From contig JAIPIH010000002.1 of the NCBI GenBank assembly GCA_021734835.1, forward strand, positions 141,979-205,978: a stretch of DNA of 64,000 nucleotides. The letters are read 5' to 3'. The translations under genes were made by a program, and so were the position numbers. This DNA is from Candidatus Cloacimonadota bacterium (GTDB lineage Bacteria > Cloacimonadota > Cloacimonadia > Cloacimonadales > TCS61). Below are positions 16,557 through 52,269 of this stretch, one piece after another. Numbering within the stretch: the first letter of the stretch is position 1; the number at the start of each line of letters is the position of its first letter. Below the pieces are notes generated by a model. The model was not told where the DNA came from. It ran no database searches and was given only the letters and a program-made list of their open reading frames with translations.

Positions 16557-17093
16557 ATGAAAAATGATATAGAGAAAATATTATTAACTAAAGAAGAAAT
16601 ACAGGATAAAGTTAAAATGATCGGTGAACAGATTTCGCAAGATTACAAAGATAAAACTCCTGTTTTAGTTTGTATTCTAAAAGGTGGAGTAATCTTTCTT
16701 TCTGATTTAATGAAGCATATATCCATACCGATCAATATTGATTTTATGTCGGTTTCCAGTTATGGAGACAGCACAAAATCATCCGGTGTTGTAAAGATCA
16801 AAAAAGATATTGATATTGATATTTCTAATCGGCATGTACTTATTATCGAAGATATAGTTGACAGCGGCTTAACATTAAAGTACATTAATAATTACTTTAC
16901 GAATCATAATGTAGCATCAGTAAAATTATGCGCATTATTAGATAAGCCGGAAGCCCATAAATCGGATCTGGATATTGATTATTTAGGATTTGAAGTGGGA
17001 AATGAGTTTGTGGTTGGATACGGACTGGATTATGCACAAGAATATCGCAATCTTCCCTACATTGGAATTTTGAAGAAGGAGATCTACAAATAA
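16557..17093 (+). CDS. hpt: hypoxanthine phosphoribosyltransferase
   Basis: PRPP-binding motif VLIIEDIVDSGLTL, 178 aa. Sits between tilS and ftsH. Confidence 0.9.
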   Translation: MKNDIEKILLTKEEIQDKVKMIGEQISQDYKDKTPVLVCILKGGVIFLSDLMKHISIPINIDFMSVSSYGDSTKSSGVVKIKKDIDIDISNRHVLIIEDIVDSGLTLKYINNYFTNHNVASVKLCALLDKPEAHKSDLDIDYLGFEVGNEFVVGYGLDYAQEYRNLPYIGILKKEIYK

Positions 17094-19171: not shown

Positions 19172-19192
19172 TTCATTTGAGGTTTTTAAGAT

Positions 19193-19726
19193 ATGAAAAA
19201 TATGCACGGTACGACAATACTTGGCGTTAAGTTAGATGGAGAAGTAGTTATCGGAGGCGACGGGCAGGTTACTTTAGGAAATACCATAATAAAAGCAACT
19301 GCTCAAAAAATAAGAAGATTATATGATGATAACGTCATAGCCGGATTTGCCGGTGCTACTGCTGACGCTTTTACACTTTTTGAAAAATTTGAAGACAAAT
19401 TGAAAGAACATAAAGGCAACCTGAAGCGTGCTGCAGTTGAGCTGGCAAAAGACTGGAGATCAGATAAGATTCTGAGAAGATTGGAGGCCATGATAATAGT
19501 TGCAGACAAAACATCTCTTCTGCTTATTTCAGGTACAGGTGATGTTTTAGAACCTGATGAAGGAGTAGTTGCAATCGGATCGGGGGGAAATTATGCACTT
19601 GCCTCAGCAAAAGCTTTTATTATTGATAAAAAACTTTCTGCACGACAAATTGTAGAAAAATCTTTAAAAATTGCCTCTCAAATCTGCATCTATACTAATG
19701 ATCAAATCATGATTGAGGAACTTTAA
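19193..19726 (+). CDS. hslV: ATP-dependent protease subunit HslV
   Basis: N-terminal HGTTILGV with the catalytic Thr, and GSGGNYAL. 177 aa, directly upstream of hslU. Confidence 0.92.
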
Positions 19727-27102: not shown

Positions 27103-27525
27103 ATGAAAGTTTTAGTATGGGATAAAGAGAAATGTATTGGCTGCCGAACTTGTGAAAAGGTTTGTTCCCAAACATGGTTCAAAGAAGAGAATAGAGACAA
27201 GTCGCGTATTAAGATAACTGAGACTGAAAATGGATTTGAAAGTAACTTTTGTAATCAATGCGGGGAGTGTATTCTGGTTTGTCCTGTCGAAGCACTAACC
27301 CGTAATGCAAAAGGTATCGTTAGATTAAATGACAAGACTTGTGTAGGCTGTTTATCGTGCGTAGGATTTTGTCCTTCCCAATCGATGTTTATTGCCAAAA
27401 CCGAACCAAAGCCATTTAAATGTATTTCTTGTGGAGTTTGTGTAAAGAATTGCCCGTCAGGAGCTCTCGCCTTACAAGAACTACCCGAACCATTGGAAAA
27501 AGTATTTTACAGGAGGCACTTCTAA
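27103..27525 (+). CDS. poly-[4Fe-4S] ferredoxin (AOR electron-transfer partner)
   Basis: Four Cys cluster motifs: CIGCRTCEKVC, CNQCGECILVCP, CVGCLSCVGFCP, CISCGVCVKNCP. TAATG overlap with the AOR gene. Confidence 0.85.
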   Translation: MKVLVWDKEKCIGCRTCEKVCSQTWFKEENRDKSRIKITETENGFESNFCNQCGECILVCPVEALTRNAKGIVRLNDKTCVGCLSCVGFCPSQSMFIAKTEPKPFKCISCGVCVKNCPSGALALQELPEPLEKVFYRRHF

Positions 27526-29702
27526 TGAATATTTATAAAAATAAATACAATGTAGATCAAATTAAGGAAAATCACAAAATCATTGCAGAATTTAAATATG
27601 ATATCAAAAAACTCTCCCTTGGATATTCAAACAAAACATTACATATCAACCTTGGTAAATCAAAGATCAGTTCAAAAGAAGTTTCACAAGAGATGAAAGA
27701 TAAATTTACCGGAGGACGCGGTTTTAACCTCAAATTATTGTGGGATGCTGTCAATGAAAATACAAAATGGGATTCTCCTGAAAATGAAATCGTTATCGCA
27801 GCCGGTCCTATGAGCGGTATTACTCAATACCCAGGAACGGGGAAATCTATAGTATGCGGGATATCTCCACTCACACAAGCACCTGTGGATAGTAATGTTG
27901 GAGGTTATTTCGGTCCTTATTTAAAATTTTCAGGTTGGGATGCAATAGAACTTCAAGGTATCTCAAAGAAGGACGTAATTGTCTATATCAATGGAGATGA
28001 AGGTCTAATTCAGATAATTGAAGCCCCCAAGGAAGATGTCAATTCTCATTTGATCTCTGAACAAATGTGCGATATATTTGCAGAAAATGAAATGGATATG
28101 AAATCAATTGCTACTGTTAGTGCCGGTCAAGGTGCCGAAAACAGCTTTTTTGGCTGCTTAAATTTCAGTTTTTATGATAGGCGCAGAAAGGTGGCTAGAC
28201 TGAAACAAGCTGGTCGCGGTGGACTGGGAACACTTTTCCGTCATAAGAAAGTAAAAGCAGTAGTTTGTAAATTTAGTAGTTTAAATTTTAATAACAACGA
28301 AGTAGATAATCTGGAAATGATCAAGGAAGTGGGCAAAAATTATCATCGAGAGCTATATGAGGAAGATGATAAACAATGTGATATGCGTCATGTTGGAACA
28401 GCTCATCTTGTCGAGATAATGGATGATTATGATCTGCTTCCTACCCATAATTACAAATTTGGTTCTGACTCTAAAACACCTAAGATTTCTTCTCCAATCT
28501 GGAGAGAAATGTTTACACAAGGGATTCCTGACGGATGCTGGTATGGATGTTCAATGCAATGCGCAAAATGTGTGGATGGTTATGTGCTGAGAACAGGACC
28601 TTATAAAGGAGATACTGTTTCTGTAGATGGCCCGGAATATGAGACAGCAGCTGCCTTCGGTGCCAATATGGGCATCTTTGATCCTCACTTTATTGTCGAA
28701 GCTAATTTCTATTGTGATACTTATGCGATTGATACTATCTCTTTTGGAACAACAATGGCATTTATCATGGAATGTTATGAAAATAATATTATTAACAAAG
28801 AGATAACAGGCGGCTATGATCTATCATTTGGAAATGGTGAAGAAGCTCTGAATATGCTGCATCTAATGGCCTCCGGAGTTGGCTTTGGCAAAACTATCGG
28901 CCTGGGGATCAGAAGACTAAAAAAATTATTCGTCGATAAATATAATGCTGATGCAAATTTTCTAAATGATATTGGAATGGAATGCAAAGGAATGGAATAT
29001 TCCGAATATATGACTAAAGAATCTCTCGCTATGCAAGGCGGATATGGTTTAGCTCTCAAGGGTGCACAACACGATGAAGCCTGGCTGATCTTTATGGATA
29101 TGGTAAACAATCAAATTCCTACATTTGAAGATAAGGCTGAAGCTCTTCATTACTTCCCTATGTTCAGGACATGGTTTGGTTTGCAGGGCTTGTGTAAGCT
29201 GCCATGGAATGACGTTGAACCGGCTGATAATGCTGAGACTGAAGAACCTGCAAAAGTTCCTTCTCATGTACAGAATTATGTTGATATTTTTAATTCTATA
29301 ACAGGTAGAAAAATTGATAAAAATGAAATGATCTTGCAATCTGAACGTGTATATAATTTCCAACGCGTTTTCAATTTAAGAATGGGCTTTGGTACCAGAA
29401 CTTCTGATAAGATACCCTATCGTTCTGCTGGTCCTGTAACAAATGAGGAATATCTTTCCAGAGAAGACCGTTATGATAAGCAGTTACAAGAGAAATGGAA
29501 CTGGAATCCCAAAGGAAAATCTGTTGATGAAAGAAAAAATAAACTAAGACAATTTCGTGAAGATGCCTATCAGCAACTCTGTGATGCTGTTTATAAAAGA
29601 CGCGGCTGGGATAATAACGGGGTTCCAACAATTAATAAAATGAAAGAACTTAAAATGGATCTGCCCGGTGTGATCGAAGTTCTGAAAAAATATGGGCAAT
29701 AA
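27525..29702 (+). CDS. aor: aldehyde:ferredoxin oxidoreductase family (tungsten/molybdopterin) enzyme
   Basis: ATG at 27525 is preceded by AGGAGG (27511-27516). AOR N-terminal domain motif FTGGRGFNLKLLW, Cys cluster DGCWYGCSMQCAKC and later GLCKLPW. 725 aa. Confidence 0.85.
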   Translation: MNIYKNKYNVDQIKENHKIIAEFKYDIKKLSLGYSNKTLHINLGKSKISSKEVSQEMKDKFTGGRGFNLKLLWDAVNENTKWDSPENEIVIAAGPMSGITQYPGTGKSIVCGISPLTQAPVDSNVGGYFGPYLKFSGWDAIELQGISKKDVIVYINGDEGLIQIIEAPKEDVNSHLISEQMCDIFAENEMDMKSIATVSAGQGAENSFFGCLNFSFYDRRRKVARLKQAGRGGLGTLFRHKKVKAVVCKFSSLNFNNNEVDNLEMIKEVGKNYHRELYEEDDKQCDMRHVGTAHLVEIMDDYDLLPTHNYKFGSDSKTPKISSPIWREMFTQGIPDGCWYGCSMQCAKCVDGYVLRTGPYKGDTVSVDGPEYETAAAFGANMGIFDPHFIVEANFYCDTYAIDTISFGTTMAFIMECYENNIINKEITGGYDLSFGNGEEALNMLHLMASGVGFGKTIGLGIRRLKKLFVDKYNADANFLNDIGMECKGMEYSEYMTKESLAMQGGYGLALKGAQHDEAWLIFMDMVNNQIPTFEDKAEALHYFPMFRTWFGLQGLCKLPWNDVEPADNAETEEPAKVPSHVQNYVDIFNSITGRKIDKNEMILQSERVYNFQRVFNLRMGFGTRTSDKIPYRSAGPVTNEEYLSREDRYDKQLQEKWNWNPKGKSVDERKNKLRQFREDAYQQLCDAVYKRRGWDNNGVPTINKMKELKMDLPGVIEVLKKYGQ

Positions 29703-29726
29703 TTACCACTTGGAAATTGTTATATA

Positions 29727-30344
29727 ATGAGCAGTATGAAGAAAGAAGAATTTTTTTCAAAGCATGATCAACGGATCATTCCTAAACTGCAAAGAGCTGT
29801 AATCGGCATTGCAGGAGCAGGAGGTTTAGGTTCTAATGTTGCAATTTCATTAACCAGAGCTGGTATTGGAGAGCTTATCATTGCTGACTTCGATAAAATA
29901 GAACCTTCCAATTTGAATAGACAGCAGTATTTTCAAAATCAAATAGGACTACCAAAGGTTGCAGCATTAAAAGATAATTTGGAGAAGATAAGCCCCTTCA
30001 CAAGAGTAAAGATTTATGAAGTTAAACTTGATAAAACTAACATCATCCCAATATTCAAAAATGTTGATATTTTAGTAGAAGCTTTTGATAAATCTGAGAT
30101 GAAAGTGATGCTGATCGAAACCTGGCTGGGGAAATTCCCTAAAAAACCAATCATAGCAGCTTCTGGGCTGGCCGGCTGGGGAAAAAATGAATTGATTCAT
30201 ACAAAACAGATTGATAACTTGTTGATATGTGGTGATGAGGAATCAAGAGTTACAGAAGCTATCTCTCCACTGAGCCCAAGAGTAGGTATTATCGCTAATA
30301 TGCAGGCAAACTTAGTTTTGGAGCTGTTGCTGAGTAAAATATGA
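29727..30344 (+). CDS. ThiF/MoeB-family sulfur-carrier adenylyltransferase (short form)
   Basis: Nucleotide-binding GAGGLGSNVA and DFD...SNLNRQ motifs. 205 aa. Confidence 0.8.
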   Translation: MSSMKKEEFFSKHDQRIIPKLQRAVIGIAGAGGLGSNVAISLTRAGIGELIIADFDKIEPSNLNRQQYFQNQIGLPKVAALKDNLEKISPFTRVKIYEVKLDKTNIIPIFKNVDILVEAFDKSEMKVMLIETWLGKFPKKPIIAASGLAGWGKNELIHTKQIDNLLICGDEESRVTEAISPLSPRVGIIANMQANLVLELLLSKI

Positions 30345-30544
30345 AAACTATAACTGTTAACGGAAATGAAATTAATTGGGAAAAGGATATAAACATCGAC
30401 GATTTACTCAAAAAAATGAATTATACTTTTAAAATGATAGTTGTGAAAATTGATGGTAATCTTATAAAAAAAAATGAGTATAAATCCACTATAGTTTATG
30501 CAGGAGCTGATGTAAAAGTTATTCATCTGGTTAGTGGTGGATAA
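30341..30544 (+). CDS. ThiS/MoaD-family ubiquitin-like sulfur carrier
   Basis: 67 aa ending in ...VSGG, the C-terminal Gly-Gly. ATGA overlap with the ThiF-like gene. Confidence 0.8.
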   Translation: MKTITVNGNEINWEKDINIDDLLKKMNYTFKMIVVKIDGNLIKKNEYKSTIVYAGADVKVIHLVSGG

Positions 30545-30616
30545 TAATTTAATAAATTAATTAAATTTAGATTTACATTGAAACTTATTTAATTAATTTT
30601 GTAATATGAGGTTAAA

Positions 30617-31096
30617 ATGAAAATTTATATTTTTCTAATCAGTATTTTGCTTGCATCCTGTGCAAAGCAGAAACTTGTAAAAGATTTTGACGAACAAACT
30701 ATTCCTGAATCTGCTGCAGGATTAGAAGAATTCAAAATTGAAGAGAATGAAGACAACGTCATAACCGAGAAAAATGCTCATGCAAAGCTTGTCTATGCTG
30801 ACAATCTAATTAAATTAGGTGATTATAAACAAGCTATCAGGATATACCAAGAGATATTTGATGATACAAAATATCGAGATGACCAGAGAGATGATGCGGT
30901 GTTCAAACTTGGTAAAACATATGAAAGCGTGCTTTATGAAGAAGCCGACATCAACAAAGCAATTTATTATTTCGATCTTTTGATCAATAAATTCCCTTTG
31001 TCAGACAGAAGACTTGAAGCTTATGAAAGAAGCCAGAGGTTAAAAATTAAATTGGAAGAAAAAAGAAATCTAAAAAACAACAATACAAATGAATAG
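30617..31096 (+). CDS. lipoprotein with TPR-like helical repeats
   Basis: Signal peptide and lipobox ILLASC. Helical repeat region (GDYKQAIRIYQEIF, KAIYYFDLLINKFP). Confidence 0.6.
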   Translation: MKIYIFLISILLASCAKQKLVKDFDEQTIPESAAGLEEFKIEENEDNVITEKNAHAKLVYADNLIKLGDYKQAIRIYQEIFDDTKYRDDQRDDAVFKLGKTYESVLYEEADINKAIYYFDLLINKFPLSDRRLEAYERSQRLKIKLEEKRNLKNNNTNE

Positions 31097-31104
31097 GAAA
31101 GGAT

Positions 31105-31419
31105 ATGTTTACAATCAACGATTATTTTGATGGAAAAGTTAAATCAATTTCTTTTAAAGATGAAAAAAGCGAGGCAACTCTTGGTGTGATGGCAAAAGGT
31201 GTTTATGAGTTCAAGACTTCTAAAAAAGAGGTGATGACTGTTATCAGCGGTAAACTCAACGTGCAGCTTCCAGGATGCGAATCTTGGAAAGAATTTGAAC
31301 GATACGATTCTTTTACGATTAATGCTGATAGCACTTTTAAAGTAAAAACAATTGGAGAATCTTCTTACATTTGCAGATATTATGAACCTAACTGCAATTG
31401 TAATTGTAATTGTACTTAA
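31105..31419 (+). CDS. ppnP: pyrimidine/purine nucleoside phosphorylase PpnP (DUF1255/YaiE family) with Asn-Cys repeat tail
   Basis: N-terminus NDYFDGKVKSISF and a cupin-like length match the PpnP/UPF0345 family. The extra C-terminal NCNCNCNCT is encoded by an AATTGT tandem repeat. Confidence 0.75.
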   Translation: MFTINDYFDGKVKSISFKDEKSEATLGVMAKGVYEFKTSKKEVMTVISGKLNVQLPGCESWKEFERYDSFTINADSTFKVKTIGESSYICRYYEPNCNCNCNCT

Positions 31420-31427
31420 TCTATTCT

Positions 31428-31985
31428 ATGAGACTTTTGTATCTCCTTTTATTTTGTACAATTCTAATTTTTTTTATTATATTTAACCTACAAGCTCAAG
31501 ATAAACTCGAAGTAAGTTTATTTGATGGTAAGCTACAACTAATGGGAACGGATTGGTTCTTAATTTTTAATGGTGATTTCTATCAGCTGGATTTAGCTCC
31601 TGAAGAATACCTGGCAGAAAAAAATATAAATCTTGAGACAAATAGTAATTTCCGGGGAGAAGGGAAATTATCCAACAATGTAATAACAATCGTTAACATT
31701 CACACTGTTGACAATATTGTAGATATTCGTAACCAAAACGGGAAACCGCTTTGGACTGAAAAAGAAGATCTCGGACACTTTATTATTGATCGCAGGAAAT
31801 GTATTGGATGTCAATTATGTGTAGCAGTCTGCCCTACTAATGCGATTTTAATGAAATATGGTTTTGCAGAAATAGATGCAGGGAAGTGTATAGATTGTGG
31901 TATTTGTATCAATGGAATAGCAGATTATAAAGGTTGCCCTACCTATGCCATCAGCGATAATGAAAACAAAATAAACAAAAAATAA
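31428..31985 (+). CDS. membrane-anchored protein with C-terminal 2x[4Fe-4S] ferredoxin domain
   Basis: N-terminal TM MRLLYLLLFCTILIFFIIF. C-terminal CIGCQLCVAVCP and CIDCGIC....CP. ATG at 31428 is preferred over the TTG at 31410, which overlaps ppnP. Confidence 0.65.
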   Translation: MRLLYLLLFCTILIFFIIFNLQAQDKLEVSLFDGKLQLMGTDWFLIFNGDFYQLDLAPEEYLAEKNINLETNSNFRGEGKLSNNVITIVNIHTVDNIVDIRNQNGKPLWTEKEDLGHFIIDRRKCIGCQLCVAVCPTNAILMKYGFAEIDAGKCIDCGICINGIADYKGCPTYAISDNENKINKK

Positions 31986-32015
31986 GCCTTGTATTAAAAT
32001 ACATATTTTTATCAT

Positions 32016-32047
32016 TTTGATAAATTTTAACACACTTTGTTATCAAA
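32016..32047 (+). promoter_or_regulatory. dyad TTTGATAA-N16-TTATCAAA, candidate upstream activator site
   Basis: Perfect 8-bp inverted repeat arms at 32016-32023 and 32040-32047. Centred about 100 bp upstream of the sigma-54 -24 element. Confidence 0.4.
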
Positions 32048-32130
32048 CTAATAAAATCTAACCCATTAACAATTCCCTAAATATCTTCCATCGGTATGCA
32101 CATCAACAGGTTATAGTACGACCTTATATT

Positions 32131-32146
32131 TGGCACATATCTTGCA
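32131..32146 (+). promoter_or_regulatory. sigma-54 (RpoN) -24/-12 promoter
   Basis: TGGCACatatcTTGCA matches the consensus TGGCAC-N5-TTGCW exactly in both sequence and spacing. Intergenic, correctly oriented, about 115 bp upstream of the PDZ gene. A GAFTGA-type activator is encoded 3 kb downstream. Confidence 0.8.
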
Positions 32147-32174
32147 GAAAGGTCTTTAAAATGAAGGAGGAAAA

Positions 32175-32249
32175 ATGGAGAATTTAATTATTAAGTGGCA
32201 GGAAAAGAAACTAAAGGTTATTAACCGATTGATCTGTAAAAATAAGTAA
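32175..32249 (+). CDS. candidate 24-codon mini-ORF (MENLIIKWQEKKLKVINRLICKNK)
   Basis: ATG preceded by AAGGAGG (32164-32170). Lies between the sigma-54 promoter and the PDZ gene. Below the ORF-track size cutoff, with no other support. Confidence 0.25.
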   Translation: MENLIIKWQEKKLKVINRLICKNK

Positions 32250-32260
32250 TAAGGGAGGAT

Positions 32261-33454
32261 ATGATGAACAAGATCATTGCAGCATTAATTTTAATTACAT
32301 GTTCCACACTATTATTGGGACAAGAACAACCCGCACAGAAGATAATGAATGAAACAGATTTTGAAAAGGAATTTGAGGGAATTCAATCCGATACTGAAGA
32401 GATAAATGTAGAGGTATTATCTGCTAAGACATCAGAGGTCACACCCAAAATGGGTCTCTATTTTTCTGATATGGACTTTGAAGACGCTTATCAAAAGCAT
32501 TATCCATATTGTTATGGAGTATATGTAGCAGGTGTTACACAAAATGGGCCTTCCTATAAAGCTGGAATTGTTGCGGGTGACATCATTATGGAATTCGATG
32601 GAAAAATTACCAGATTTGAAAAGCATCTTGTAACCTTGATCAAAAGTAAAAATATTGGAGATGAAGTTAAGGTTAAGATCTTTAGAGATGAAGAAATAGT
32701 CTATGCCAACGTCAAGTTAGATAGTTTAACACCAGCATCAAGTTCTTTCACAATAACAAAAGACGGTAAGGTTACAAAAGCCGCTAAAAAATTATCAGTT
32801 GGCCATGGTGGTGGTGGCTGGATACCTGTTTGGTATATAGATAACGATAAACTGAGAGACTTGAATTATCTTCTCGCAGAATATGGTTTTAATGAATTGG
32901 ATGAAAGCGGCATGTTAATGCACGGTGGCGGAGGTCATGGTAATATTGGAAAAGGTTGGTTTCTAGGTGGTATGGGTGCCGGATATTCGATCGATAAGAA
33001 AAAAGGTTATCAAACTGCTTCCGGCGAATCTGTTACCCGACGAATGTCATATTCAAATACTTTTGGTGGAGTAACATTGGATAAGAGAATTGCGTTTTCC
33101 AGTAATCTGATCTCGTCACTCGGATTTATGCTGGGTTGGGGTGGACATAATTTACAGATATCACAAACGGATGGCAATTATAATTGGGACAGTATGAATG
33201 ATGACATGGATTCAGCAGAAAATAATGCTGTTGAATTAGAGAAAAATTATATATTATTCCAACCAAAAGCAGCTCTGATGTTAAGAATTCTTGATTGGCT
33301 GAGTATCCGTGCTGAAGGTGGGTTGATGCTTTCTCATTCTTATACAAAAGGCTGGGATGCTGTTTCCTGTGAGGATAATTTCCAGATCGACAATTCCCCA
33401 GAAACCTCATATCAGGGTTATACTATTTCTATTGGCCCTTGGTTTGGTTTTTAA
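32261..33454 (+). CDS. secreted PDZ-domain protein with Gly-rich segments and an OMP-like beta-rich C-terminus
   Basis: SD AAGGGAGGA and a signal peptide. PDZ core GVYVAGVTQNGPSYKAGIVAGDIIMEFDG. Gly runs GHGGGGW and HGGGGHGNIGKGW. Alternating-pattern C-terminal region ending ...ISIGPWFGF. Confidence 0.75.
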   Translation: MMNKIIAALILITCSTLLLGQEQPAQKIMNETDFEKEFEGIQSDTEEINVEVLSAKTSEVTPKMGLYFSDMDFEDAYQKHYPYCYGVYVAGVTQNGPSYKAGIVAGDIIMEFDGKITRFEKHLVTLIKSKNIGDEVKVKIFRDEEIVYANVKLDSLTPASSSFTITKDGKVTKAAKKLSVGHGGGGWIPVWYIDNDKLRDLNYLLAEYGFNELDESGMLMHGGGGHGNIGKGWFLGGMGAGYSIDKKKGYQTASGESVTRRMSYSNTFGGVTLDKRIAFSSNLISSLGFMLGWGGHNLQISQTDGNYNWDSMNDDMDSAENNAVELEKNYILFQPKAALMLRILDWLSIRAEGGLMLSHSYTKGWDAVSCEDNFQIDNSPETSYQGYTISIGPWFGF

Positions 33455-33472
33455 TTATTGACACATTTGAAG

Positions 33473-33507
33473 AGTCTCTGACATTTTTTGCCGGAGACTT
33501 TTTTTTT
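33473..33507 (+). terminator. candidate intrinsic terminator or attenuator after the PDZ gene
   Basis: Stem AGTCTCTG / CGGAGACT (8 bp including one G-U) with an 11-nt loop, followed by a run of 9 T. It abuts the AGGAGG SD of the next gene. Confidence 0.45.
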
Positions 33508-33518
33508 AGGAGGATGTA

Positions 33519-34067
33519 GTGTTTCAGGTTCTAGCTGATAAAGTCATTACTGGTTTAGCGGCTCTTTCAATGTTACTCTTGAGTTCTTATCAAGGTAATG
33601 AAGCTAGATTCGAAAATTTTCATACTTCGGTGATCCAAGATAAAGTTTTCCTTGAATACAAGCTTGTTAAAGCATTTGAAAATGATTTTGAAGAGATATT
33701 TAAATCTGGACAAAACATAGAAATAATGTTTAAAATAACCTTCGATTTAAATAACACTGTGATCTTCGAAGACGTTTTTATTCACTCAGTTGTCTTCGAC
33801 CCACTCAAACAGGTTTTTTATGTCATGATCGAAGATAAAGAACTCAACATCACAACTGATTCTTATGAAGAGCTGAAAGCGATCATTTCAGAAGTACAAT
33901 ATAGTTTCGAAGATGAATTGATCTATGATTGTGAAGTAACTATTATGGCATATCTTTCTAAAATACAAATGGTGTCTGCTAAAAAGGATTTTGATCTTAT
34001 GCTACTGTGGAAATACAATAAACCTAAACTAACACATAAGATAATGGGTGAACAGAATGAAAATTAA
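33519..34067 (+). CDS. hypothetical exported or membrane-anchored protein encoded upstream of the sensor kinase
   Basis: GTG start after AGGAGG. N-terminal hydrophobic segment GLAALSMLLLSS. 20-nt overlap with the kinase gene. No family assignable by eye. Confidence 0.5.
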   Translation: MFQVLADKVITGLAALSMLLLSSYQGNEARFENFHTSVIQDKVFLEYKLVKAFENDFEEIFKSGQNIEIMFKITFDLNNTVIFEDVFIHSVVFDPLKQVFYVMIEDKELNITTDSYEELKAIISEVQYSFEDELIYDCEVTIMAYLSKIQMVSAKKDFDLMLLWKYNKPKLTHKIMGEQNEN

Positions 34068-35226
34068 TTTTGGGATCAGATCAAGCTTAATTATTCTATT
34101 TCTACTCTTGTATATTTCAAGTTTATTTATTATTAATAATTTTTTTATTAAAAAATATCAGCAATCGAATAAGTTGTTTCAGGATATGAAATTAGATACT
34201 TCAATCTCAGAGTTGTCTTTTCAAACTGAGCTGGACAGCATTCAGGCTAGAATTCTCCTTAACAAATTCCGACAAAATCTGGCAGATGCTAAAATGCTTA
34301 AACAAGAAGCTCAAATATATTCTATCGCCTTTTTACTTATACTGATGATATTTTCCATTGCCATATTTATAATATTTTTATATAAGATCACAAAACCACT
34401 TGATCAGCTGCAAAAGGCGACAAATAAGATAAAAGATGGAAACTTATCTGTTAATCTTCCGGTAACAGGTATCAAAGAGATACGTAACCTGAAACAATCA
34501 TTTAATGAAATGTCCAGAGAATTGAATTCGACTCAAAAAAAGTTAATCCAATCAGAAAAGAACATTATGTGGAAAGAACTTTCAAGAATCCTTGCTCATG
34601 AGATCAAAAACCCACTTACTCCTATTCAGTTAACCATGCAAAGATTAGAAGAAAAGTATAATAATGATACAGAAAACTTGTATGCTGTTTTCCCCGAATC
34701 TGTGATGATCATTAATCAGGAGATAAACAATTTAAAAAATCTGGTTAGTACTTTCTCAAATTTTGCTAAGAACGTTGAGCCTGAAAGCTCAATATTTAAT
34801 CCGAAAACAGAAATTGCTGAAATCCTTAAATCATATCAAAATGATTTCGAGCTTAAATTATCAGGTCAAAATTGTATGATCAAATTTGATAAAACTCATC
34901 TTTATCAGATTATTACTAATTTAGTTCAAAATGCGATTGAAGCTTCTAAGGAAGACGATATTGTAACTATAACCATTACTCAGAAAGATGATTTTGTAAA
35001 AATCTGTATCTTAGATTCAGGAATTGGGATAAAGGAAACTCAGCTCGATAAAATTTTCGAACCATATTTTACAAACAAGAAGAAAGGTACAGGATTAGGA
35101 TTAGCTCTAGTAAAAAAATTAGTTGATATAAATAATTCATCTATAAATGTGACATCAAAAGAAAATGAAGGTAGTTGTTTTGAAATTATCATTCCAAACT
35201 ACCCTTTTGAAAAGGGAATAGCATGA
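34048..35226 (+). CDS. sensor histidine kinase (2 TM, HAMP, HisKA, HATPase), NtrY/AtoS-like
   Basis: HAMP region around ITKPLDQLQKATNKIKDGNL. H-box LAHEIKNPLTPI, N-box NLVQNAIEA, G-boxes DSGIGI and GTGLGLALV. Confidence 0.85.
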   Translation: MNRMKINFGIRSSLIILFLLLYISSLFIINNFFIKKYQQSNKLFQDMKLDTSISELSFQTELDSIQARILLNKFRQNLADAKMLKQEAQIYSIAFLLILMIFSIAIFIIFLYKITKPLDQLQKATNKIKDGNLSVNLPVTGIKEIRNLKQSFNEMSRELNSTQKKLIQSEKNIMWKELSRILAHEIKNPLTPIQLTMQRLEEKYNNDTENLYAVFPESVMIINQEINNLKNLVSTFSNFAKNVEPESSIFNPKTEIAEILKSYQNDFELKLSGQNCMIKFDKTHLYQIITNLVQNAIEASKEDDIVTITITQKDDFVKICILDSGIGIKETQLDKIFEPYFTNKKKGTGLGLALVKKLVDINNSSINVTSKENEGSCFEIIIPNYPFEKGIA

Positions 35227-36569
35227 AAGTATTGATTATTGATGATGAAATGAATATTTGTTTATCATTAAAAAATATTTTAGAAGATGAAGGATATAGT
35301 TGCAGTTATGTTGTTGATACAAGAAAATGGCTGGATAAATTTGAAGTTGTTAATCCGGATATTATACTTCTAGATGTTAGACTTGATGGCGCAAATGGGA
35401 TAGATCTGCTAAAAGAAATTAAAAACAGGAAGAAAAATACTATCGTAATAATGATCTCAGGGCACAGTGGTATAAAAGAAGCTGTTCAATCCATAAAATA
35501 CGGCGCATATGATTTTCTGGAAAAGCCGCTGAGCTTAACAAAAGTAAAAATAATTATTAAAAAGGCTCTCGAATTTCATAATATGGCTTTAGATTATTCC
35601 AGATTAAAGCAAGATGAAAGTGAAAAGTATAAAATAATTGGGAATAGCAAATCAATCAAAAATCTTCTGGAACTGGTCGATAAGATAGCAGCAAGCAATT
35701 CCAAAGTGCTGATCAGAGGAGAAAGCGGCACCGGAAAAGAGCTGGTTGCCTTCGCTATTCATAATAAGAGTCAGCGCAAATACAAACATTTTGCTAAGTT
35801 CAATTCTGCAGCGATTCCCACCGAACTTGTAGAAAGTGAATTATTCGGATATGAAAAAGGTGCCTTTACCGGAGCTGAAGGTAATAAAGAAGGAAAAATC
35901 GAATTAGCTAATGGTGGAACTCTTTTCCTGGATGAAATTGGCGATATGAGCTTAATGGCACAATCAAAAATTTTGCGGGTAATACAGGAAGGAGAATTTG
36001 AAAGAGTTGGTAGCAACAAAACTCACAAAATTGATGTGCGATTGATTGCCGCAACGCATAAGAACTTGGAGGAACTTGTAAAAACCGGGCAATTTAGAGA
36101 AGATCTTTTCTATAGATTGAATGTAATACCACTGATCACTCCCCCACTCCGCGAACATCCGGAAGATATTCCAATATTAATAGATCATTTTTCTAAGAAA
36201 TTCTCCCAGGAATTGAACTTACCCTTAAAAAAATTTTTACCTGAAACGATATCTGAATTACAATCATGGGAATTCAAAGGGAACATACGAGAATTAAAAA
36301 ATTTAATCGAACGAATATATATTCTGTATCCTTATATGGAAGTTAAATTGGACGATATTATTGATAAAATTGATACGAAAAATGGACATGAACCTTCCTT
36401 CTGGAATGTAATACGCCCTTTCAAAGAAAAGAAGAATGAGTTTGAAAAAAAATATTTGTTGGCTCAATTGAAAATTAATAATGGAAGTATTTCGAAAACT
36501 GCCAAATCGCTCGATTTACAAGTCAGTAATTTATCCAGAAAATTAAAAGAATTAGACATACATTCTTAA
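35223..36569 (+). CDS. sigma-54-dependent response regulator (NtrC/AtoC family)
   Basis: Receiver domain (DIILLDVRL). AAA+ Walker A GESGTGKE, sigma-54 contact loop GAFTGA, Walker B LFLDEIG. C-terminal Fis-type HTH. ATGA overlap with the kinase gene. Confidence 0.9.
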   Translation: MKVLIIDDEMNICLSLKNILEDEGYSCSYVVDTRKWLDKFEVVNPDIILLDVRLDGANGIDLLKEIKNRKKNTIVIMISGHSGIKEAVQSIKYGAYDFLEKPLSLTKVKIIIKKALEFHNMALDYSRLKQDESEKYKIIGNSKSIKNLLELVDKIAASNSKVLIRGESGTGKELVAFAIHNKSQRKYKHFAKFNSAAIPTELVESELFGYEKGAFTGAEGNKEGKIELANGGTLFLDEIGDMSLMAQSKILRVIQEGEFERVGSNKTHKIDVRLIAATHKNLEELVKTGQFREDLFYRLNVIPLITPPLREHPEDIPILIDHFSKKFSQELNLPLKKFLPETISELQSWEFKGNIRELKNLIERIYILYPYMEVKLDDIIDKIDTKNGHEPSFWNVIRPFKEKKNEFEKKYLLAQLKINNGSISKTAKSLDLQVSNLSRKLKELDIHS

Positions 36570-36590: not shown

Positions 36591-38336
36591 ATGAAATCTA
36601 AATGGTTTGCCTTTGGCTGTCTTACTTCAGTTGCTTTAATTATAATAGTGATATTAATGATCTCTAGTTTTTTTGGTAGTACCGGGAAAATGTTGCAAAA
36701 ACCATTACCCGAGAAAATCACATCCGGGTCCTGGCTCAAAATTGATATTATGGGTAGAATTGTAGATTATGACGAATTTGAAGGCAGTCCCTTTGCGGGT
36801 CCCTTTTCTAGTAAGAAAACTTCTGTTCATTCCATCTGTCATAAGATCAATAAGGCTTCAATGGATAGCAAGATCAAAGGAATCATCTTGGAACCTAAAT
36901 TTCTAACAAGTGGATACGCTAATATAAATGAAATTATGGCAGCTCTTGAAAATTTTAAAACCAAAGGTAAAGAAATATATGCCTACTTAGAGCTTGCTAT
37001 GGATAAAGATTACTTGCTTTCAACTGTCGCTGATAAAATTTATTTAAACCCATCCGCTTCAGCAGGGATATTACTAACAGGAGTCGGAGGTGAAATATTA
37101 TTTTACAAGGATTTTTTCGATAAAATTGGAGTTGAAGTTAAAGTTATTCATGCTGGTCAATACAAAGGCGCCGGAGAAAATTATTCAAGAAACAGATTGT
37201 CTGAACCAGTGCGGGAAAACCTAGAGGAATTATTTTCTGATATTTATGGGTCAATTTTAAGTAAAATCGCAACAAATAGAAGGATAGATTTCAATACTAT
37301 TATTGATCTATACGAAAAAAGAGAAGAAATTTTCATCAAACAAGAAAACGCTTTGGAATCTAACTTAATCGATAAGCTCAGTCATAAGGAGGATTTTTAT
37401 AATGCAATTGGGGTAATACCAAAAAAAATAATTTCATACTCAGACTACAAAATACCTGTTTTAAAGAAATCTGATTCCAATATTGCGGTTGTTTATGCTC
37501 AAGGTGCCATTATGATGCAATCTCAAGGTTTTGATACAGTTAATATTACAGATACTAATTTGAATTCAATCTTAAATAAAATTGAAAAAGATAACAGTAT
37601 TAAAGGTGTTGTAATTCGTGTGAACAGTCCAGGAGGAAGTGCTTTGATATCTGAAAATATTCATTCTAAAATAAAAAATCTCAGAGCTGTTAAGCCAGTA
37701 GTTATATCAATGGGAAATGTAGCTGCATCAGGCGGTTATTACATCTCAGCGGAATCAGATTATATTTTTGCAGATCCTTATACTGTCACCGGTTCAATTG
37801 GAGTAGTGGCGATGATACCCAATATTGCAGGATTAACTGATAAACTCGGTATTCATAAAGATAGTATTTCAAGAGGTAAATATGCTGATGCAATTAGCAT
37901 TTATTCGAAATTAGATGATTCCATGAAAAAATCATTAAAGATGAGCATCGAGGATACTTACACGGAGTTTAAGGAGAGAGTATCTGAAGGCAGGGGAATA
38001 TCAGTGTCCGAGGTAGAACAAATTGCACAAGGGCAGGTCTGGTCAGCTGATAACGCTGTTCAAAATCATCTAATAGATGAGACTGGAATATTAAATAATG
38101 CAATCAGTAAAGCCGCCGATTTAGCTGAGGTTAAAGAATTTACAATTAAATATTATCCTGAACAAAAGAATTTTTTTACAGAATTTCTAAAAAATAAATT
38201 TAGTTTTGGTATTGCTGAAACTTTCATTTCAAATGAAATAATTGAAGATCAAACAATGATGAATGCCTTAAGATTGTTGAAATCAATTAAAAATGATCCA
38301 CAACAGGCTATTTTACTTTTTGAACTCAAAAATTAA
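36591..38336 (+). CDS. sppA: signal peptide peptidase SppA, 67K type (tandem S49 domains)
   Basis: N-terminal TM and two S49-like halves. Catalytic-Ser motif GNVAASGGYY in the C-terminal half. 581 aa. Confidence 0.85.
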   Translation: MKSKWFAFGCLTSVALIIIVILMISSFFGSTGKMLQKPLPEKITSGSWLKIDIMGRIVDYDEFEGSPFAGPFSSKKTSVHSICHKINKASMDSKIKGIILEPKFLTSGYANINEIMAALENFKTKGKEIYAYLELAMDKDYLLSTVADKIYLNPSASAGILLTGVGGEILFYKDFFDKIGVEVKVIHAGQYKGAGENYSRNRLSEPVRENLEELFSDIYGSILSKIATNRRIDFNTIIDLYEKREEIFIKQENALESNLIDKLSHKEDFYNAIGVIPKKIISYSDYKIPVLKKSDSNIAVVYAQGAIMMQSQGFDTVNITDTNLNSILNKIEKDNSIKGVVIRVNSPGGSALISENIHSKIKNLRAVKPVVISMGNVAASGGYYISAESDYIFADPYTVTGSIGVVAMIPNIAGLTDKLGIHKDSISRGKYADAISIYSKLDDSMKKSLKMSIEDTYTEFKERVSEGRGISVSEVEQIAQGQVWSADNAVQNHLIDETGILNNAISKAADLAEVKEFTIKYYPEQKNFFTEFLKNKFSFGIAETFISNEIIEDQTMMNALRLLKSIKNDPQQAILLFELKN

Positions 38337-38463: not shown

Positions 38464-39615
38464 ATGAAAAAAAATAAGAGAATTATATTATTAATTGGGA
38501 TGGTTTTCGTATTTTGTACTTCCATATTAGCAATTTCTCAAGAGTTATCAGCAGAAGGGAAAAAGAATTTACGTTCAGCTAATATGCATTTAGGTGGGAA
38601 AAGGCATGAAAAGGCACTTCCTTTATATGAAAAAGTATTAGAAGAAAATCCTAATAATATAGAAGCGTTGAATAATACTGCGGCAATTTATTATGACATT
38701 ATAGGTGATTATGCCAAAGCTCGTGAATATTTCGTTAGATTGATCGATGTAATTAATGCTACTTATGCTGAATATGAAGAATTAATGAAAACTGATGAGA
38801 AGGCTGCCAAGAAATATGAGAAAATCAATATCAAAAAACCAAAATTGGAAGATAAACTCAAGGCTGTAATAAAATTTCGAGATAATTGTTTTACTCAAAT
38901 GATAAACCAGGGTAAACTAAAGATTCAGACTCAGGAGTATGAGGAAGCTATAGAAAGTCTTCTGAGAGTTACCAAAGTTGTTCCTGACAGTACTTTAACT
39001 TACAGATTAATTGCCCTTTGCTACGACAAACTCGATGATAAAGAAAACTCAAAAAAGTACTTTATTAAAACCAGCGAACTGGATCCCAACGATACCTATG
39101 CCAAACAACAAGTGGCATCTTTATACTTTGCAGAAGAAAATTTTGAAGAGGCTGGAAACTGGTACTTAGCAGCTACTATCAATGAAAAAGATAACCCGGA
39201 CAATTATTATAATGCCGGTATAGCTTATAAAAATGCAAATAAAAACCAATTAGCGTTCGACGCTTTTCTGCAAGCCCTTGAACTGGATCCGGAAAATTTA
39301 ACGACACTAGTGACATTAAGTAATTTAGCTCTAACTTTAAAAGATAATGAAGCTTCAACATTGTTTCTACAAAAAGCAGTAGATCTTGATGTTGCAGATG
39401 GAACTTTGGATAATCCTATGTATGTTACAACTCTTTGCTATAAATTGTACGGTATTTCCCAATTTAAAGATTTAATTACTTATGCTGAAATGTGGCGTCA
39501 ATTCGATGAAACTTCTGTGGAAGCCGTGCAAATGCTATATAATGCTGCTAAAGAATTGAACGATAAGAAACTTATGGAAAAATATAATAAAATTTATCAA
39601 AAGATGCAAGAATAG
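38464..39615 (+). CDS. secreted TPR-repeat protein
   Basis: Signal peptide, then multiple TPR-like units (ALPLYEKVLEENPNN, YRLIALCYDKLDD, YYNAGIAYKNANK, AFDAFLQALELDPEN). Confidence 0.7.
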   Translation: MKKNKRIILLIGMVFVFCTSILAISQELSAEGKKNLRSANMHLGGKRHEKALPLYEKVLEENPNNIEALNNTAAIYYDIIGDYAKAREYFVRLIDVINATYAEYEELMKTDEKAAKKYEKINIKKPKLEDKLKAVIKFRDNCFTQMINQGKLKIQTQEYEEAIESLLRVTKVVPDSTLTYRLIALCYDKLDDKENSKKYFIKTSELDPNDTYAKQQVASLYFAEENFEEAGNWYLAATINEKDNPDNYYNAGIAYKNANKNQLAFDAFLQALELDPENLTTLVTLSNLALTLKDNEASTLFLQKAVDLDVADGTLDNPMYVTTLCYKLYGISQFKDLITYAEMWRQFDETSVEAVQMLYNAAKELNDKKLMEKYNKIYQKMQE

Positions 39616-39622
39616 TTAGCGT

Positions 39623-39709
39623 GCGAAAGTGGCGGAGTTGGTAGACGCGCTGGCCTTAGAAGCCAGTGAGAGAAATCTCGTAGGGGTTCGAGTCCCCTCT
39701 TTCGCACCA
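39623..39709 (+). tRNA. tRNA-Leu (anticodon UAG), CCA encoded
   Basis: Hand-folded cloverleaf. Acceptor GCGAAAG/CTTTCGC, D arm GCG-GAGTTGGTAGA-CGC. Anticodon stem CTGGC/GCCAG with loop CTTAGAA. Long variable arm (class II). T arm AGGGG-TTCGAGT-CCCCT. Discriminator A plus CCA. Confidence 0.9.
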
Positions 39710-39740
39710 AATATTTTTATAAAAAATAAGAGGAGATAAA

Positions 39741-41012
39741 TTGAAAACTAGTATCAAAGAAATTAGCCAATGTGTTAGAGAACTTACTATTACAATAGAT
39801 TCGAATACTGCTTTAGCAGATTATAAAAAAGTAGTAAATCAATTTAAAAATTATGTTGCCATTCCAGGCTTCCGCAAGGGCAAAGCTCCTGTCTCGATCA
39901 TTGAAAATAGCTTCGGACCACAGATCAAAGAAGAATTTTACAATCAGAAATTGGGAGATTATTATAAAGAGGCGATCGATACAGAAGATACTCATCCCAT
40001 TAATCAAGGAGAACCATTAAAATTTGATTGGGAAAAAGGTAATGACTTAATTGTAACCTTTAAATATGAGATCATGCCAGAAATAAAAGTAAAAAAATAT
40101 AAAAATTTAGAAATACCTTTTGAACCTGTAAAATTTAAAACAGAAATGATCGATGCAACCTTAGACGAATATCGAAGTAAAATGGCTACTGAAACGTCCA
40201 TTGAAGAAGGTGAAAAAGGAGCCATTATGGAGATTACGGTTAGTTTTCTTGATGAAAATGACGAGGTTACAAAGGAACTAAAAAGAAAAATTGAAATTGA
40301 TAATAATCAATATTCAAAATCTTTTAATACTAAGTTATTAGGATTGAAACCGGAAGCTGAATTTAAAAGCAAGCTGTTCACAAAATCGCAAAATTCAAGT
40401 GATCAGGATATAAATGATAAGATAAAGGACAGAGAATTCTTGATTAAAGTTGATTCAATAAAACGTAAAAATATCCCGGAGTTGAACGACGATTTCGCAA
40501 AGGATCTTGAATACGATTCTGTAAAAGACCTTAAGGAAAAAGTTGCAGAAGAACTGAAAAATAAGATCAAAGAAGATAATAAGAATAATATGAAAGGTGC
40601 GATCCTGTCCAAATTGATCGAGGAAAATGATTTTGAATTACCTCAGTCTATTGTGAAACAAGTTGCTGAGAATATGGCAAAACCGTATGCTGAATCATAT
40701 AAAATGGAACTGGATAAGATGACTCAAATGTATCTTGGGATAGCCGAATACAATTTGAAAGGACATTATTTAGTTGAAGAAATAAAAAAAATAGCTAATA
40801 TTAAATTAACAGAGAAAGAAAAAGAAGAATTAATTGTTAAAGCTGCTGAAAATATGAAGATGGAGCTTGAAAAGTACAAAAAAATGCATGAGAAACAAAT
40901 AAAGAGCGATGATTTCACTTATGCAGCAGAAGAAGAAAAAGTGATGGACTTGATAAAAGAAAGTTCAACGTTTGTTAAAGTGCCAAAAGAGAAAAATCAA
41001 AGCAAGAAATAA
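39741..41012 (+). CDS. tig: trigger factor
   Basis: TTG start 5 nt after GAGGAG. Ribosome-binding signature GFRKGKAP. tig-clpP-clpX synteny. Confidence 0.9.
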
Positions 41013-41026
41013 CTAAAGGAGAAAAT

Positions 41027-41641
41027 ATGGCTTACGTACCTATCGTCGTCGAACAAAATGGAAAAGCAGAAAGAGCTTATGATATCTATTCCAGGCTCTT
41101 AAAAGACAGAATTATTTTTGTTGGTTCTCCAATAGATTTTAATATTGCTAATGTAGTTATCGCACAATTACTGCATCTTGAAGCGGAAGATCCGGATAAA
41201 GATATCTATATGTATATTAATAGTCCTGGCGGTTCAGTTTCTGCAGGATTAGCTATTTATGATACAATGCAGTATATTCGACCTGATGTCTCAACAATTT
41301 GCATTGGACAAGCATCTAGTATGGGTGCATTTTTGTTGTCGGCCGGAGTAAAAGGTAAAAGATTTGCACTGCCGAATAGCAGGATAATGATCCATCAACC
41401 TTTAGGGGGTGTGCAAGGTCAGGCCTCTGATATTGAAATACATACAAAAGAAATCCTGCATCTCAAAAACAAACTTAATCAGTTACTGCATAAACATACT
41501 AACCAACCTTTAAAAAAGATCGAAAAGGATACTGATCGTAATTTCTTTATGAGTCCGGAAGAAGCTCACACCTACGGGATAATAGATGAAGTAATTGCAA
41601 CCCGAAAAGATTCGTTTGGTAAACCAAAAAAGGGAGAGTAG
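41027..41641 (+). CDS. clpP: ATP-dependent Clp protease proteolytic subunit
   Basis: [10 protein letters not shown], catalytic region [11 protein letters not shown], and MIHQPLGG with the catalytic His. Confidence 0.95.
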
Positions 41642-42871
41642 ATGGAACAAGAATATAAATGCTCATTCTGTGGCAGATCGGAAGCAGAAACTAAATATCT
41701 GATCAAAGGACTGAGTGGGAATATCTGTGAAGAATGTGTTTCAATGTGTTCAACAATAATGGAATCTGAATCGCAGAAAAAGGAGATGGATAATTTTATT
41801 TTACCCTCACCAAGGGAACTCCATGAACTTCTTAATCAGTATGTGATCGGACAGGAACAAGCAAAGAAAATTATTTCAGTTGCTGTTTATAATCACTATA
41901 AAAGAATATTTAAACAAGATCCAAATAGTGAGGTCGATATTGAGAAAAGCAATATCCTGATGATTGGTCCTACCGGTTCCGGTAAAACTCTCATTGCTCA
42001 GACTCTGGCCAGAATTCTTAAAGTTCCATTTGCAATTGCTGATGCAACAACCCTAACTGAAGCGGGTTACGTTGGTGAGGATGTAGAAAATATTCTTGTA
42101 AGACTTCTTCAAAATGCAAGTTATGATATTGATAAAGCAGAAAAAGGAATCATTTACATTGACGAACTTGATAAAATTGCCAGAAAATCTGAAACTCCTT
42201 CGATCACTCGTGATGTCTCAGGTGAAGGAGTTCAGCAGGCACTGTTAAAGATATTAGAAGGTGCAAAAGTGAATGTACCTCCAAAAGGCGGAAGAAAACA
42301 TCCTCAGCAGGAATTCATTGAAATTGATACAAAAAACATACTTTTTATTGCCGGTGGTGCCTTTTTTGGATTAGATAAAGTCATTAAAAACAGACTTAAG
42401 AAGAAAGCTGTTGGATTTGATGCTGACGTGATTTCCCAAAAAGATATCGACCTTGATTTTTTTAGTAAAACTATACCAAATGATCTGGTTAAATATGGTC
42501 TTATTCCTGAATTGGTCGGCAGAATACCGGTTTTATCTTCATTACATGAATTAGATGAAGAAGCTTTGATCGCTATTTTAACTCAACCAAAGAACGCAAT
42601 TTGCAAACAATATACAAAACTGTTTGAGATTGAAAATGTTAAACTTGATTTTGGTATTGATGCTCTTAGAGAGATCGCTCATACTGCAATTAAACAAAAA
42701 ACCGGTGCTAGAGGATTAAGAGCGATCATGGAAAAATTTATGCTTGAAATAATGTATGAACTACCAGAAATCAACAACTTAAAAGAATGCTTTATTTCTG
42801 CAGATGTTGTTTCAGGAAAAACTGATCCTATCTTCTCTTTTACTGATAATAAAAAGGAACAATCTGCATAG
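41642..42871 (+). CDS. clpX: ATP-dependent Clp protease ATPase subunit ClpX
   Basis: N-terminal zinc-binding CSFCG...C..C. Walker [16 protein letters not shown], Walker [10 protein letters not shown], pore loop GYVG. Confidence 0.95.
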
Positions 42872-52254: not shown

Positions 52255-52269
52255 CCCATATAGTTAGTT

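Follow-up and report, generated by a model that had tools for sequence, protein, structure and literature searches.

A conserved sigma-54-type promoter with paired upstream palindromes ahead of a PDZ protein gene in Cloacimonadota, and its likely NtrC-family activator

In our study, a 64-kb stretch of contig JAIPIH010000002.1 of a Candidatus Cloacimonadota bacterium (64,000 nucleotides, hereafter the window) was found to contain a putative sigma-54 control region at positions 32009-32146. We consider it probable that this region drives a mini-open reading frame (mini-ORF) together with the gene of an exported PDZ protein, and that it is activated by the NtrC-family regulator encoded at 35223-36569. 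The elements were located in the 275-nt gap between the end of a 4Fe-4S protein gene (31985) and the start of the PDZ gene (32261). No known RNA family was found in the region 31900-32400 at E <= 1, and no published regulatory site for Cloacimonadota was found in the literature. The promoter was searched on both strands of the window with the pattern TGGCAC-N5-TTGCW, allowing no mismatch or one. Orthologs of the PDZ protein were collected by an alignment-based scan of species-representative genomes, which gave 80 loci with 30-67% protein identity. Promoters were counted in 77 loci, in about 330 nt upstream of the PDZ gene, with no change in the GG or the GC and no more than one mismatch; activator sites were counted in 70 loci as TATCA-N3-TGATA with at most one mismatch and a centre between -160 and -95; gene linkage was counted in the 61 loci having enough sequence. 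Positions such as -141 and -110 are counted from the predicted start site, 32157.

The promoter TGGCACATATCTTGCA (32131-32146, plus strand) contained the -24 element TGGCAC and the -12 element TTGCA, followed by a predicted start at about 32157. The spacing of the two elements and their GG/GC context fit the sigma-54 promoter class exactly. It was the sole match to the pattern in the 64 kb, on either strand and at 0 or 1 mismatch; the sequence-only reading had described an RpoN consensus match in both sequence and spacing, the only one that it saw in an intergenic region. By chance, 0.03 exact matches are expected per window, and an exact match was present in 3 of 100 shuffles. In 49 of the 77 loci, the PDZ ortholog was preceded by a -24/-12 site that deviated at no more than one position (0.006 expected); 25 of these sites were exact. 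The promoter accompanied the PDZ gene although the upstream neighbour gene differed between the loci. Because the conservation in the 80 orthologous loci is decisive, whereas the single-window statistics are modest, the promoter and the upstream dyad are more than chance matches. Judged from sequence and its conservation, 32131-32146 is a genuine, phylogenetically conserved sigma-54-type promoter ahead of the PDZ gene. The distance from the promoter to the start codon was 25-45 nt in most lineages, which leaves space only for a short leader with GGAGG. One clade (L021 and L025-L036; e.g., L028 at about 1500) contained the promoter variant TGGCACGATATTTGA(C/T) or ...TTGTA, that is, TGGCAC-N5-TTGA/TTGT; the GC of the -12 element was substituted by GA or GT in this clade, and the upstream TATCA-N3-TGATA sites were retained.

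The promoter-aligned upstream regions contained a 13-bp palindrome, TATCA-N3-TGATA, at fixed positions. In the window, the predicted activator site 1, TTATCATTTTGATAA (32009-32023, centre at about -141), was a perfect palindrome with an exact match to this core and began 24 nt past the stop codon of the upstream gene. The predicted activator site 2, TTATCAAACTAATAA (32040-32054, centre at about -110), contained a perfect left half and a degenerate right half. The two sites were 31 bp apart, i.e., three helical turns. The sequence-only reading had described a single perfect dyad, TTTGATAA-N16-TTATCAAA (32016-32047), about 100 bp upstream of the promoter. The dyad was found to be exact, with its centre 100 bp upstream of the -24 GG, and it was conserved about 100-140 bp upstream of the promoter; its location stands, and the single dyad is refined to the inner pair of half-sites of two tandem palindromes. 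From the alignments, the dyad is formed by the inner half-sites of two palindromes of 13-15 bp, in the layout that is classic for enhancer-binding-protein sites. With their centres at -141 and -110, the predicted activator sites lie in the range of about 80-150 bp from the promoter that the sigma-54 promoter class requires.

The palindrome TATCA-N3-TGATA was found in 62 of the 70 loci, 34 of them exact, against 0.015 expected. Absence of the dyad upstream of orthologous loci had been named beforehand as an outcome that would refute the circuit, and the dyad proved conserved there. These counts, together with those of the promoter, rule out a chance match; in the window itself, 0.26 dyads with at most two mismatches are expected. 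Between 22 and 24 loci belonged to the class with 31-bp spacing, with centres at -142 +/- 2 and -111 +/- 2, and a counterpart of site 1 was present at -141 to -145 in most of the orthologous loci. In other clades, the 13-bp palindromes were spaced 21 bp apart in one (-144 and -123) and 13 bp apart in another (-121 and -108). Within the 31-bp class, the right half of site 1 (TGATAA) and the left half of site 2 (TTATCA) were each invariant in 24/24 loci. The right half of site 2 was T[T/A]ATAA, with G never present, and the outer halves were degenerate. The dyad form TGATAW-N16-WTATCA was found in 32 of the 71 promoter-bearing loci. As RNA, the dyad region showed a weak fold (-6.6 kcal/mol, z -1.84) with the dyad outside the minimum-energy structure, and the half-sites were sequence-invariant and without covariation. 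Recognition of the DNA by a protein is indicated, because the RNA fold is weak and the half-sites do not covary; on the values of the fold, a role of the dyad at the RNA level, as a hairpin or as a terminator for the gene upstream, was excluded.

The gene at 35223-36569 (plus strand) encodes an NtrC-family response regulator, or enhancer-binding protein, with the Pfam domain order PF00072, PF00158, PF25601 (AAA_lid_14), and PF02954, i.e., REC-AAA+(GAFTGA)-HTH_8; the Sigma54_activat domain was matched with E 2.3e-72. The GAFTGA motif was found at residues 213-218 (DNA 35859), and this was the only GAFTGA protein in the window. The motif was conserved in 42 of 44 regulator orthologs, and the other two contained single substitutions. 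The closest solved relatives of the regulator were NtrC4, NtrC1, and NtrX. It remained below the NCBIfam equivalog cut-offs of AtoC (414.6 vs 714 bits), NtrC (414.0 vs 558.6), NtrX (411.0 vs 600), and ZraR (334.7 vs 760). The recognition helix Q-x-SNLSRK[LI]KEL was essentially invariant in the 44 orthologs, including those of clades with differing site spacing. Because the helix is invariant in clades that keep the TATCA/TGATA core, the regulator is likely to be the activator that acts through sites 1 and 2. The order PDZ, small protein, kinase, regulator, and SppA (followed by a TPR protein) recurred in most of the orthologous loci. The DUF4390 gene, which encodes this small protein, or the kinase gene was found less than 400 nt from the PDZ gene in 37/61 loci and farther away on the same strand in 13/61 loci; the other 11 loci contained neither.

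The promoter and the sites could be real and be bound by a different enhancer-binding protein, with the adjacent kinase and regulator serving other targets. For this reading speak the 11/61 loci in which the promoter and the TATCA/TGATA sites are kept without a kinase or regulator nearby, and the terminator and likely separate promoter (described below) that uncouple the two sets of genes. We regard it as unlikely, since the PDZ gene is linked with the DUF4390, kinase, and regulator genes in 50/61 loci across a deep divergence, the recognition helix is unchanged in precisely those clades that have an invariant operator core, and a single GAFTGA protein is present in the window. It has also to be considered that the dyad is the operator of a repressor or metalloregulator (GATA-rich boxes of the Fur type), or a terminator of the upstream 4Fe-4S gene. 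The TGATAA/TTATCA hexamers do resemble those of Fur boxes, and the short distance between the upstream stop codon and the element would suit a terminator. The distance of the element to the -24/-12 promoter, however, is fixed within +/- 2 bp across clades, which is enhancer-like and without overlap of the promoter; the element stays ahead of the PDZ gene even where another gene has become the upstream neighbour; and both the weak RNA fold and the invariant, non-covarying half-sites speak against a terminator. An operator or terminator of this kind is therefore very improbable.

The region behind the PDZ gene bears on the question of transcription units. The 64-nt gap after PDZ contained, in order, TTGACA, a hairpin, a run of nine U, and then directly the Shine-Dalgarno sequence of the DUF4390 gene. 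TTGACA (33458-33463, plus strand), a candidate -35 box, began 3 nt after the PDZ stop codon. In 37 of 51 loci (background 0.034), TTGACA preceded the DUF4390 gene at a distance of 35-84 nt, in most cases 58-84 nt, and it was also present in distant clades where a separate GC-rich terminator precedes it. No consistent -10 element was found behind TTGACA; TAnnnT at a spacing of 15-19 nt was present in 15 of the 37 loci, and a full sigma-70 promoter was not upheld. The hairpin (33469-33503), which with its U9 tail resembles an intrinsic terminator (33469-33508, plus strand), had an energy of -15.9 kcal/mol and z -4.15, and 0/200 shuffles folded as well. A hairpin with a T-rich tail was found after the PDZ stop in 58 of 76 loci; its distal stem covaried, whereas the basal stem AGTCTCT/AGAGACT was conserved in sequence across lineages. 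The region 33458-33508 may be read as a promoter overlapping a terminator or as a conserved RNA of the 3' untranslated region.

The genes from the mini-ORF to sppA could still form one long autoregulated operon, in which the hairpin is a stabiliser or a weak attenuator and the regulator closes a positive feedback loop. All these genes share one strand and follow each other closely or overlap, TTGACA lacks a consistent -10 element, and NtrX-type and many NtrC-type systems autoregulate. The conserved hairpin and U-tract after PDZ, the separate GC-rich terminator ahead of TTGACA in distant clades, and the unlinking of the kinase and regulator from PDZ in some genomes argue against it, and we take a single operon to be possible though doubtful. 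Because a conserved hairpin and a conserved TTGACA separate the PDZ gene from the regulatory genes, there are probably two transcription units: the sigma-54-driven mini-ORF and PDZ genes, and the DUF4390, kinase, regulator, and SppA genes with their own promoter, which would overlap the terminator. The self-contained, possibly autoregulated circuit of the sequence-only reading is weakened, as a single operon, by the frequency of the hairpin, that of TTGACA, and the eleven unlinked loci.

The preferred reading of two units under a sigma-54 control region can be put as follows. RNA polymerase with sigma-54 would bind 32131-32146 as a closed complex. The phosphorylated regulator, encoded 3 kb downstream, would bind the two TATCA-N3-TGATA sites (-141 and -110) and oligomerise; the AT-rich intervening DNA would loop, and GAFTGA would contact sigma-54 so that the promoter opens. 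Transcription would start near 32157 and give a short mRNA for a basic 24-residue peptide and an outer-membrane PDZ/beta-barrel protein, with most transcripts stopping at the hairpin and U9 (33469-33508). The DUF4390, kinase, regulator, and SppA genes would be transcribed mainly from their own promoter (TTGACA, 33458), together with some read-through, which would allow some feedback. The kinase, with a periplasmic loop of about 55 residues, probably receives its input via the periplasmic DUF4390 protein, as proposed for PlrP/PlrS, with some condition of the cell envelope as the most likely signal.

Several points weigh against this scheme. Site 2 is only half-palindromic, and the half-site centres of the 13-bp palindrome are 8-9 bp apart, which is tighter than in the NtrC operator. 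The pairing of the regulator with the sites is deduced from co-conservation only, and in the eleven loci mentioned above the promoter and sites are kept though the kinase and regulator are not near PDZ. The terminator behind PDZ weakens the case for simple positive autoregulation. The envelope-stress role is suggested by domain content only; the sequence-only reading had proposed an envelope or protein-quality-control circuit, and of this the association of the products with the envelope stands, whereas the role itself is drawn from the domains. Moreover, rpoN is only implied in this genome: a search with an RpoN-box pattern in the window and in 81 Cloacimonadota loci (about 760 kb) gave no match, and those ORFs of RpoN-like size (about 370-530 residues) that were scanned with Pfam proved to be other proteins. 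Nothing was found in the literature on sigma-54 in Cloacimonadota.

The main regulated gene (32261-33454, plus strand) encodes an exported protein with a signal peptide, an HtrA-type PDZ domain at residues ~62-153 (PF13180, E 3.5e-14), and a C-terminal predicted beta-barrel ending in ...GPWFGF. The PDZ domain matched those of DegP, DegQ, DegS, and HtrA. The protein did not belong to the HtrA/DegP/DegS protease family, as TIGR02037 gave 48 bits against a cut-off of 416, in the PDZ part only, and no protease domain was present. In the AlphaFold2 model (pLDDT, the predicted local distance difference test, 72), the C-terminal half was modelled as a beta-barrel, and PWFGF at the C-terminus was invariant in 18 aligned homologs. 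On the basis of the model, we infer an outer-membrane protein with a periplasmic PDZ domain. More than 120 homologs were found, almost all labelled Cloacimonadota, with Ca. Tenebribacter as the nearest; the protein was identical to one from a Candidatus Cloacimonetes metagenome-assembled genome. Some lineages contained tandem PDZ/barrel paralogs behind the promoter, or an ORF of about 180-190 residues between the promoter and PDZ (L053, 867-3872; L054, 5386-8330; L008, 5308-5881; L077, 5239-5812).

The mini-ORF (32175-32249, plus strand), the first ORF past the promoter, encodes a peptide of 24 residues, MENLIIKWQEKKLKVINRLICKNK, and is preceded by the Shine-Dalgarno sequence AAGGAGG (32164-32170). 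In 17 of 71 loci, which belong to three clades, a related peptide occupied the corresponding place, e.g., MKNLVIKWNEKKIEVITRSKSKTN, MKHNSIILLWKERKKLYNLPKK, and MKRYSILKIWRRRVALYNLPRKLT; the loci beside the window were L002, L003, L005, L015, L021-L026, L028-L030, L032, L033, and L036. The peptides were basic, 21-24 residues long, and shared the motif hydrophobic-x-W-K/R-E/D/K/R-K/R. Variable sites at codon positions 1/2/3 numbered 3/1/8 in one clade and 10/7/15 in the clade of the window, and because of this bias to the third position the mini-ORF is probably translated. Its stop codon lay 11 nt before the PDZ start codon in the clade of the window, and in L006 and L007 the mini-ORF was fused in frame with the PDZ ORF. 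In two clades, a GC-rich hairpin and a T-run separated the end of the mini-ORF from the start codon of PDZ; an example is L025 (about 5790-5950), with GGGAAGCG-cccc-CGCTTCCC-TCCCTTTTT. The same layout was present in L022-L024, L026, L028-L030, L032, L033, and L036, and was absent from the clade of the window. The 3' end of the mini-ORF (CUCCCU) could pair with the 5' arm of the leader hairpin. From its sequence, this arrangement of hairpin and mini-ORF resembles an attenuator of the leader-peptide type placed downstream of a sigma-54 promoter.

The small exported protein (33519-34067, plus strand) contained an N-terminal hydrophobic stretch, and its gene, with a GTG start and AGGAGG 5 nt before it, overlapped the kinase gene. 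Against PF14334 (DUF4390), the protein of the window scored 18.9 bits, under the Pfam cut-off of 27, whereas 38 of 47 orthologs matched at E <= 0.01 (best E 1.3e-18); its assignment as a DUF4390 (PlrP-like) protein thus holds at the family level, not from the window sequence alone. By analogy with PlrP, it is probably a third signalling component. The sensor histidine kinase (34048-35226, plus strand) contained two transmembrane segments, a periplasmic loop of about 55 residues, HAMP, HisKA, and HATPase_c. It reached no NCBIfam equivalog cut-off, the best match being the LIC_11548 family, below the cut-off; with HAMP, HisKA, and HATPase_c only, and without PDC and PAS, it was not of the NtrY type. 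SppA, a 67K-type signal peptide peptidase (36591-38336, plus strand; TIGR00705, 374 bits vs cut-off 311.45), was encoded 21 nt past the regulator gene, and this adjacency was found in 24 of 37 loci. It was followed by a TPR-repeat protein (38464-39615, plus strand), often conserved after sppA, whose membership in the unit is uncertain. The mini-ORF, the PDZ protein, the HAMP kinase, the intact GAFTGA regulator adjoining this kinase, and sppA had all been named correctly from the sequence, and the small exported protein, which was present and exported as described, is now refined to the DUF4390/PlrP type.

The locus shares features with several known systems. In the NtrB/NtrC system of E. coli, the glnAp2 promoter depends on sigma-54 and has two strong NtrC sites, at about -140 and -108. 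The present locus is similar in its TGGCAC-N5-TTGCA promoter, in two palindromic dimer-type sites that are about three turns apart and have nearly identical positions (-141 and -110), and in an activator of the REC/AAA+/Fis-type helix-turn-helix (HTH) architecture with GAFTGA and a histidine kinase partner. It differs in the operator, which is TATCA-N3-TGATA here and TGCACC-N5-GGTGCA for NtrC, in the score of the regulator below the NtrC cut-off, in a membrane-bound kinase with HAMP, and in a target that is an envelope protein rather than nitrogen assimilation. ZraP-ZraS-ZraR is an envelope stress system of Enterobacteria. Its two-component system likewise depends on sigma-54, is accompanied by an accessory protein in the periplasm, and controls a periplasmic protein-quality factor. 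In the present locus, in contrast, no ZraP homolog was found, the genes are co-directional and not divergent, the target is a PDZ/beta-barrel protein, and the scores were 125 against a cut-off of 479 bits for ZraS and, as given above, well below that of ZraR. In DegS/DegP, unassembled outer-membrane proteins are sensed through PDZ domains. The protein described here has a PDZ domain of the HtrA/DegS/DegP type and is exported, whereas it lacks a protease domain, its PDZ domain is fused to a predicted beta-barrel, and its control would be by sigma-54, not by sigma-E/Cpx.

A similar arrangement is that of Bordetella PlrP-PlrS-PlrR. PlrP is a periplasmic DUF4390 protein whose gene immediately precedes plrS, the gene of an NtrY-type kinase, and overlaps with it; PlrP was recently proposed as a third component that restrains the phosphatase activity of PlrS (PMC13001219). 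In the present locus, too, the DUF4390 gene overlaps a kinase gene, and the gene of an NtrC-family regulator comes next. The DUF4390 protein likewise contains an export signal, internal promoters are indicated in place of a single operon, as in Bordetella, and a link to the cell envelope is suggested. The kinase, unlike PlrS, is without PDC and PAS, the domains through which PlrP is thought to act, and contains a loop of only about 55 residues; no rsmB gene was present upstream, and the phylum is Cloacimonadota, not Proteobacteria. The regulator keeps GAFTGA, unlike Caulobacter NtrX, and scored below the NtrX cut-off. NtrYX controls envelope genes in Rhodobacter (PMC7240162), which is a functional parallel only.

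The mechanism of an enhancer-dependent sigma-54 promoter is textbook knowledge and well understood; the locus is of value for its phylum-wide motif in a little-studied, uncultured phylum, and as a DUF4390-linked system, competent for sigma-54, outside Proteobacteria. We tentatively put forward, as a rather speculative proposal, a Cloacimonadota-wide, sigma-54-competent relative of NtrYX/PlrPSR, with a periplasmic DUF4390 partner, a minimal HAMP kinase, and a GAFTGA regulator, whose sole conserved direct target would be the unit of a leader peptide (22-24 residues, basic) and the PDZ/barrel protein, with a translation-coupled attenuator in some clades. If true, a DUF4390-type system would for the first time have a defined operator and a direct target, and control of the envelope via sigma-54 would be suggested for the ancestors of the NtrX-like regulators. 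To our knowledge, Cloacimonadota have no cultured, genetically tractable member. The locus offers a testable promoter, operator, and regulator for the whole phylum, tied to an uncharacterised family of predicted outer-membrane PDZ proteins and to SppA. It extends the DUF4390 (PlrP) kinase-regulator arrangement beyond Proteobacteria, with the sigma-54 contact loop retained, and bears on the signals to which NtrYX-type systems respond and on the question of an ancestral role in the envelope.

Further candidate sites were also examined. A possible bending site for integration host factor (IHF), CATCAACAGGTTA (32101-32113, plus strand, centre about -50), was read from the sequence with one mismatch to WATCAANNNNTTR and is kept as a weak, tentative feature. 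Another clade contained five loci (L037, L038, L041, L045, and L048) with exact IHF-consensus sites at -49 to -51, against a background of 0.01 per 75-nt window. An IHF site as a general feature was rejected, as the exact consensus was present between -105 and -30 in 7/62 loci only, two of them reversed near -61. A second exact TATCATTTTGATA (19882-19894) was rejected as a regulon site: it lies inside hslU, where it encodes NIILIGP upstream of the Walker A motif (GPTGVGKT), and is a coding coincidence. The sole extra promoter-plus-site match of the window, inside sppA and with 4 mismatches, was discounted. Among the orthologous loci, further promoter-plus-site pairs were found ahead of two genes only, about 1 kb (L054) and 0.7 kb (L064) upstream of PDZ, whereas the pair in L071 was that of its own PDZ promoter and the pair in L047 fell within the PDZ coding sequence.

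Protein-quality-control genes flanked the locus, with ftsH, hslV, and hslU upstream (17093-21079). The downstream flank (39623-42871) contained tRNA-Leu, tig, clpP, and clpX. The region preceding the locus (27420-31985) encoded an aldehyde:ferredoxin oxidoreductase, ThiF, ThiS, a small TPR protein, Ppnp, and the 4Fe-4S protein; this block was syntenic in many, not all, of the orthologous loci, and the Ppnp ORF ended in a NCNCNCNC repeat. Two adjoining genes for GGDEF diguanylate cyclases, one with an N-terminal TPR region, were found at 50548-53292.

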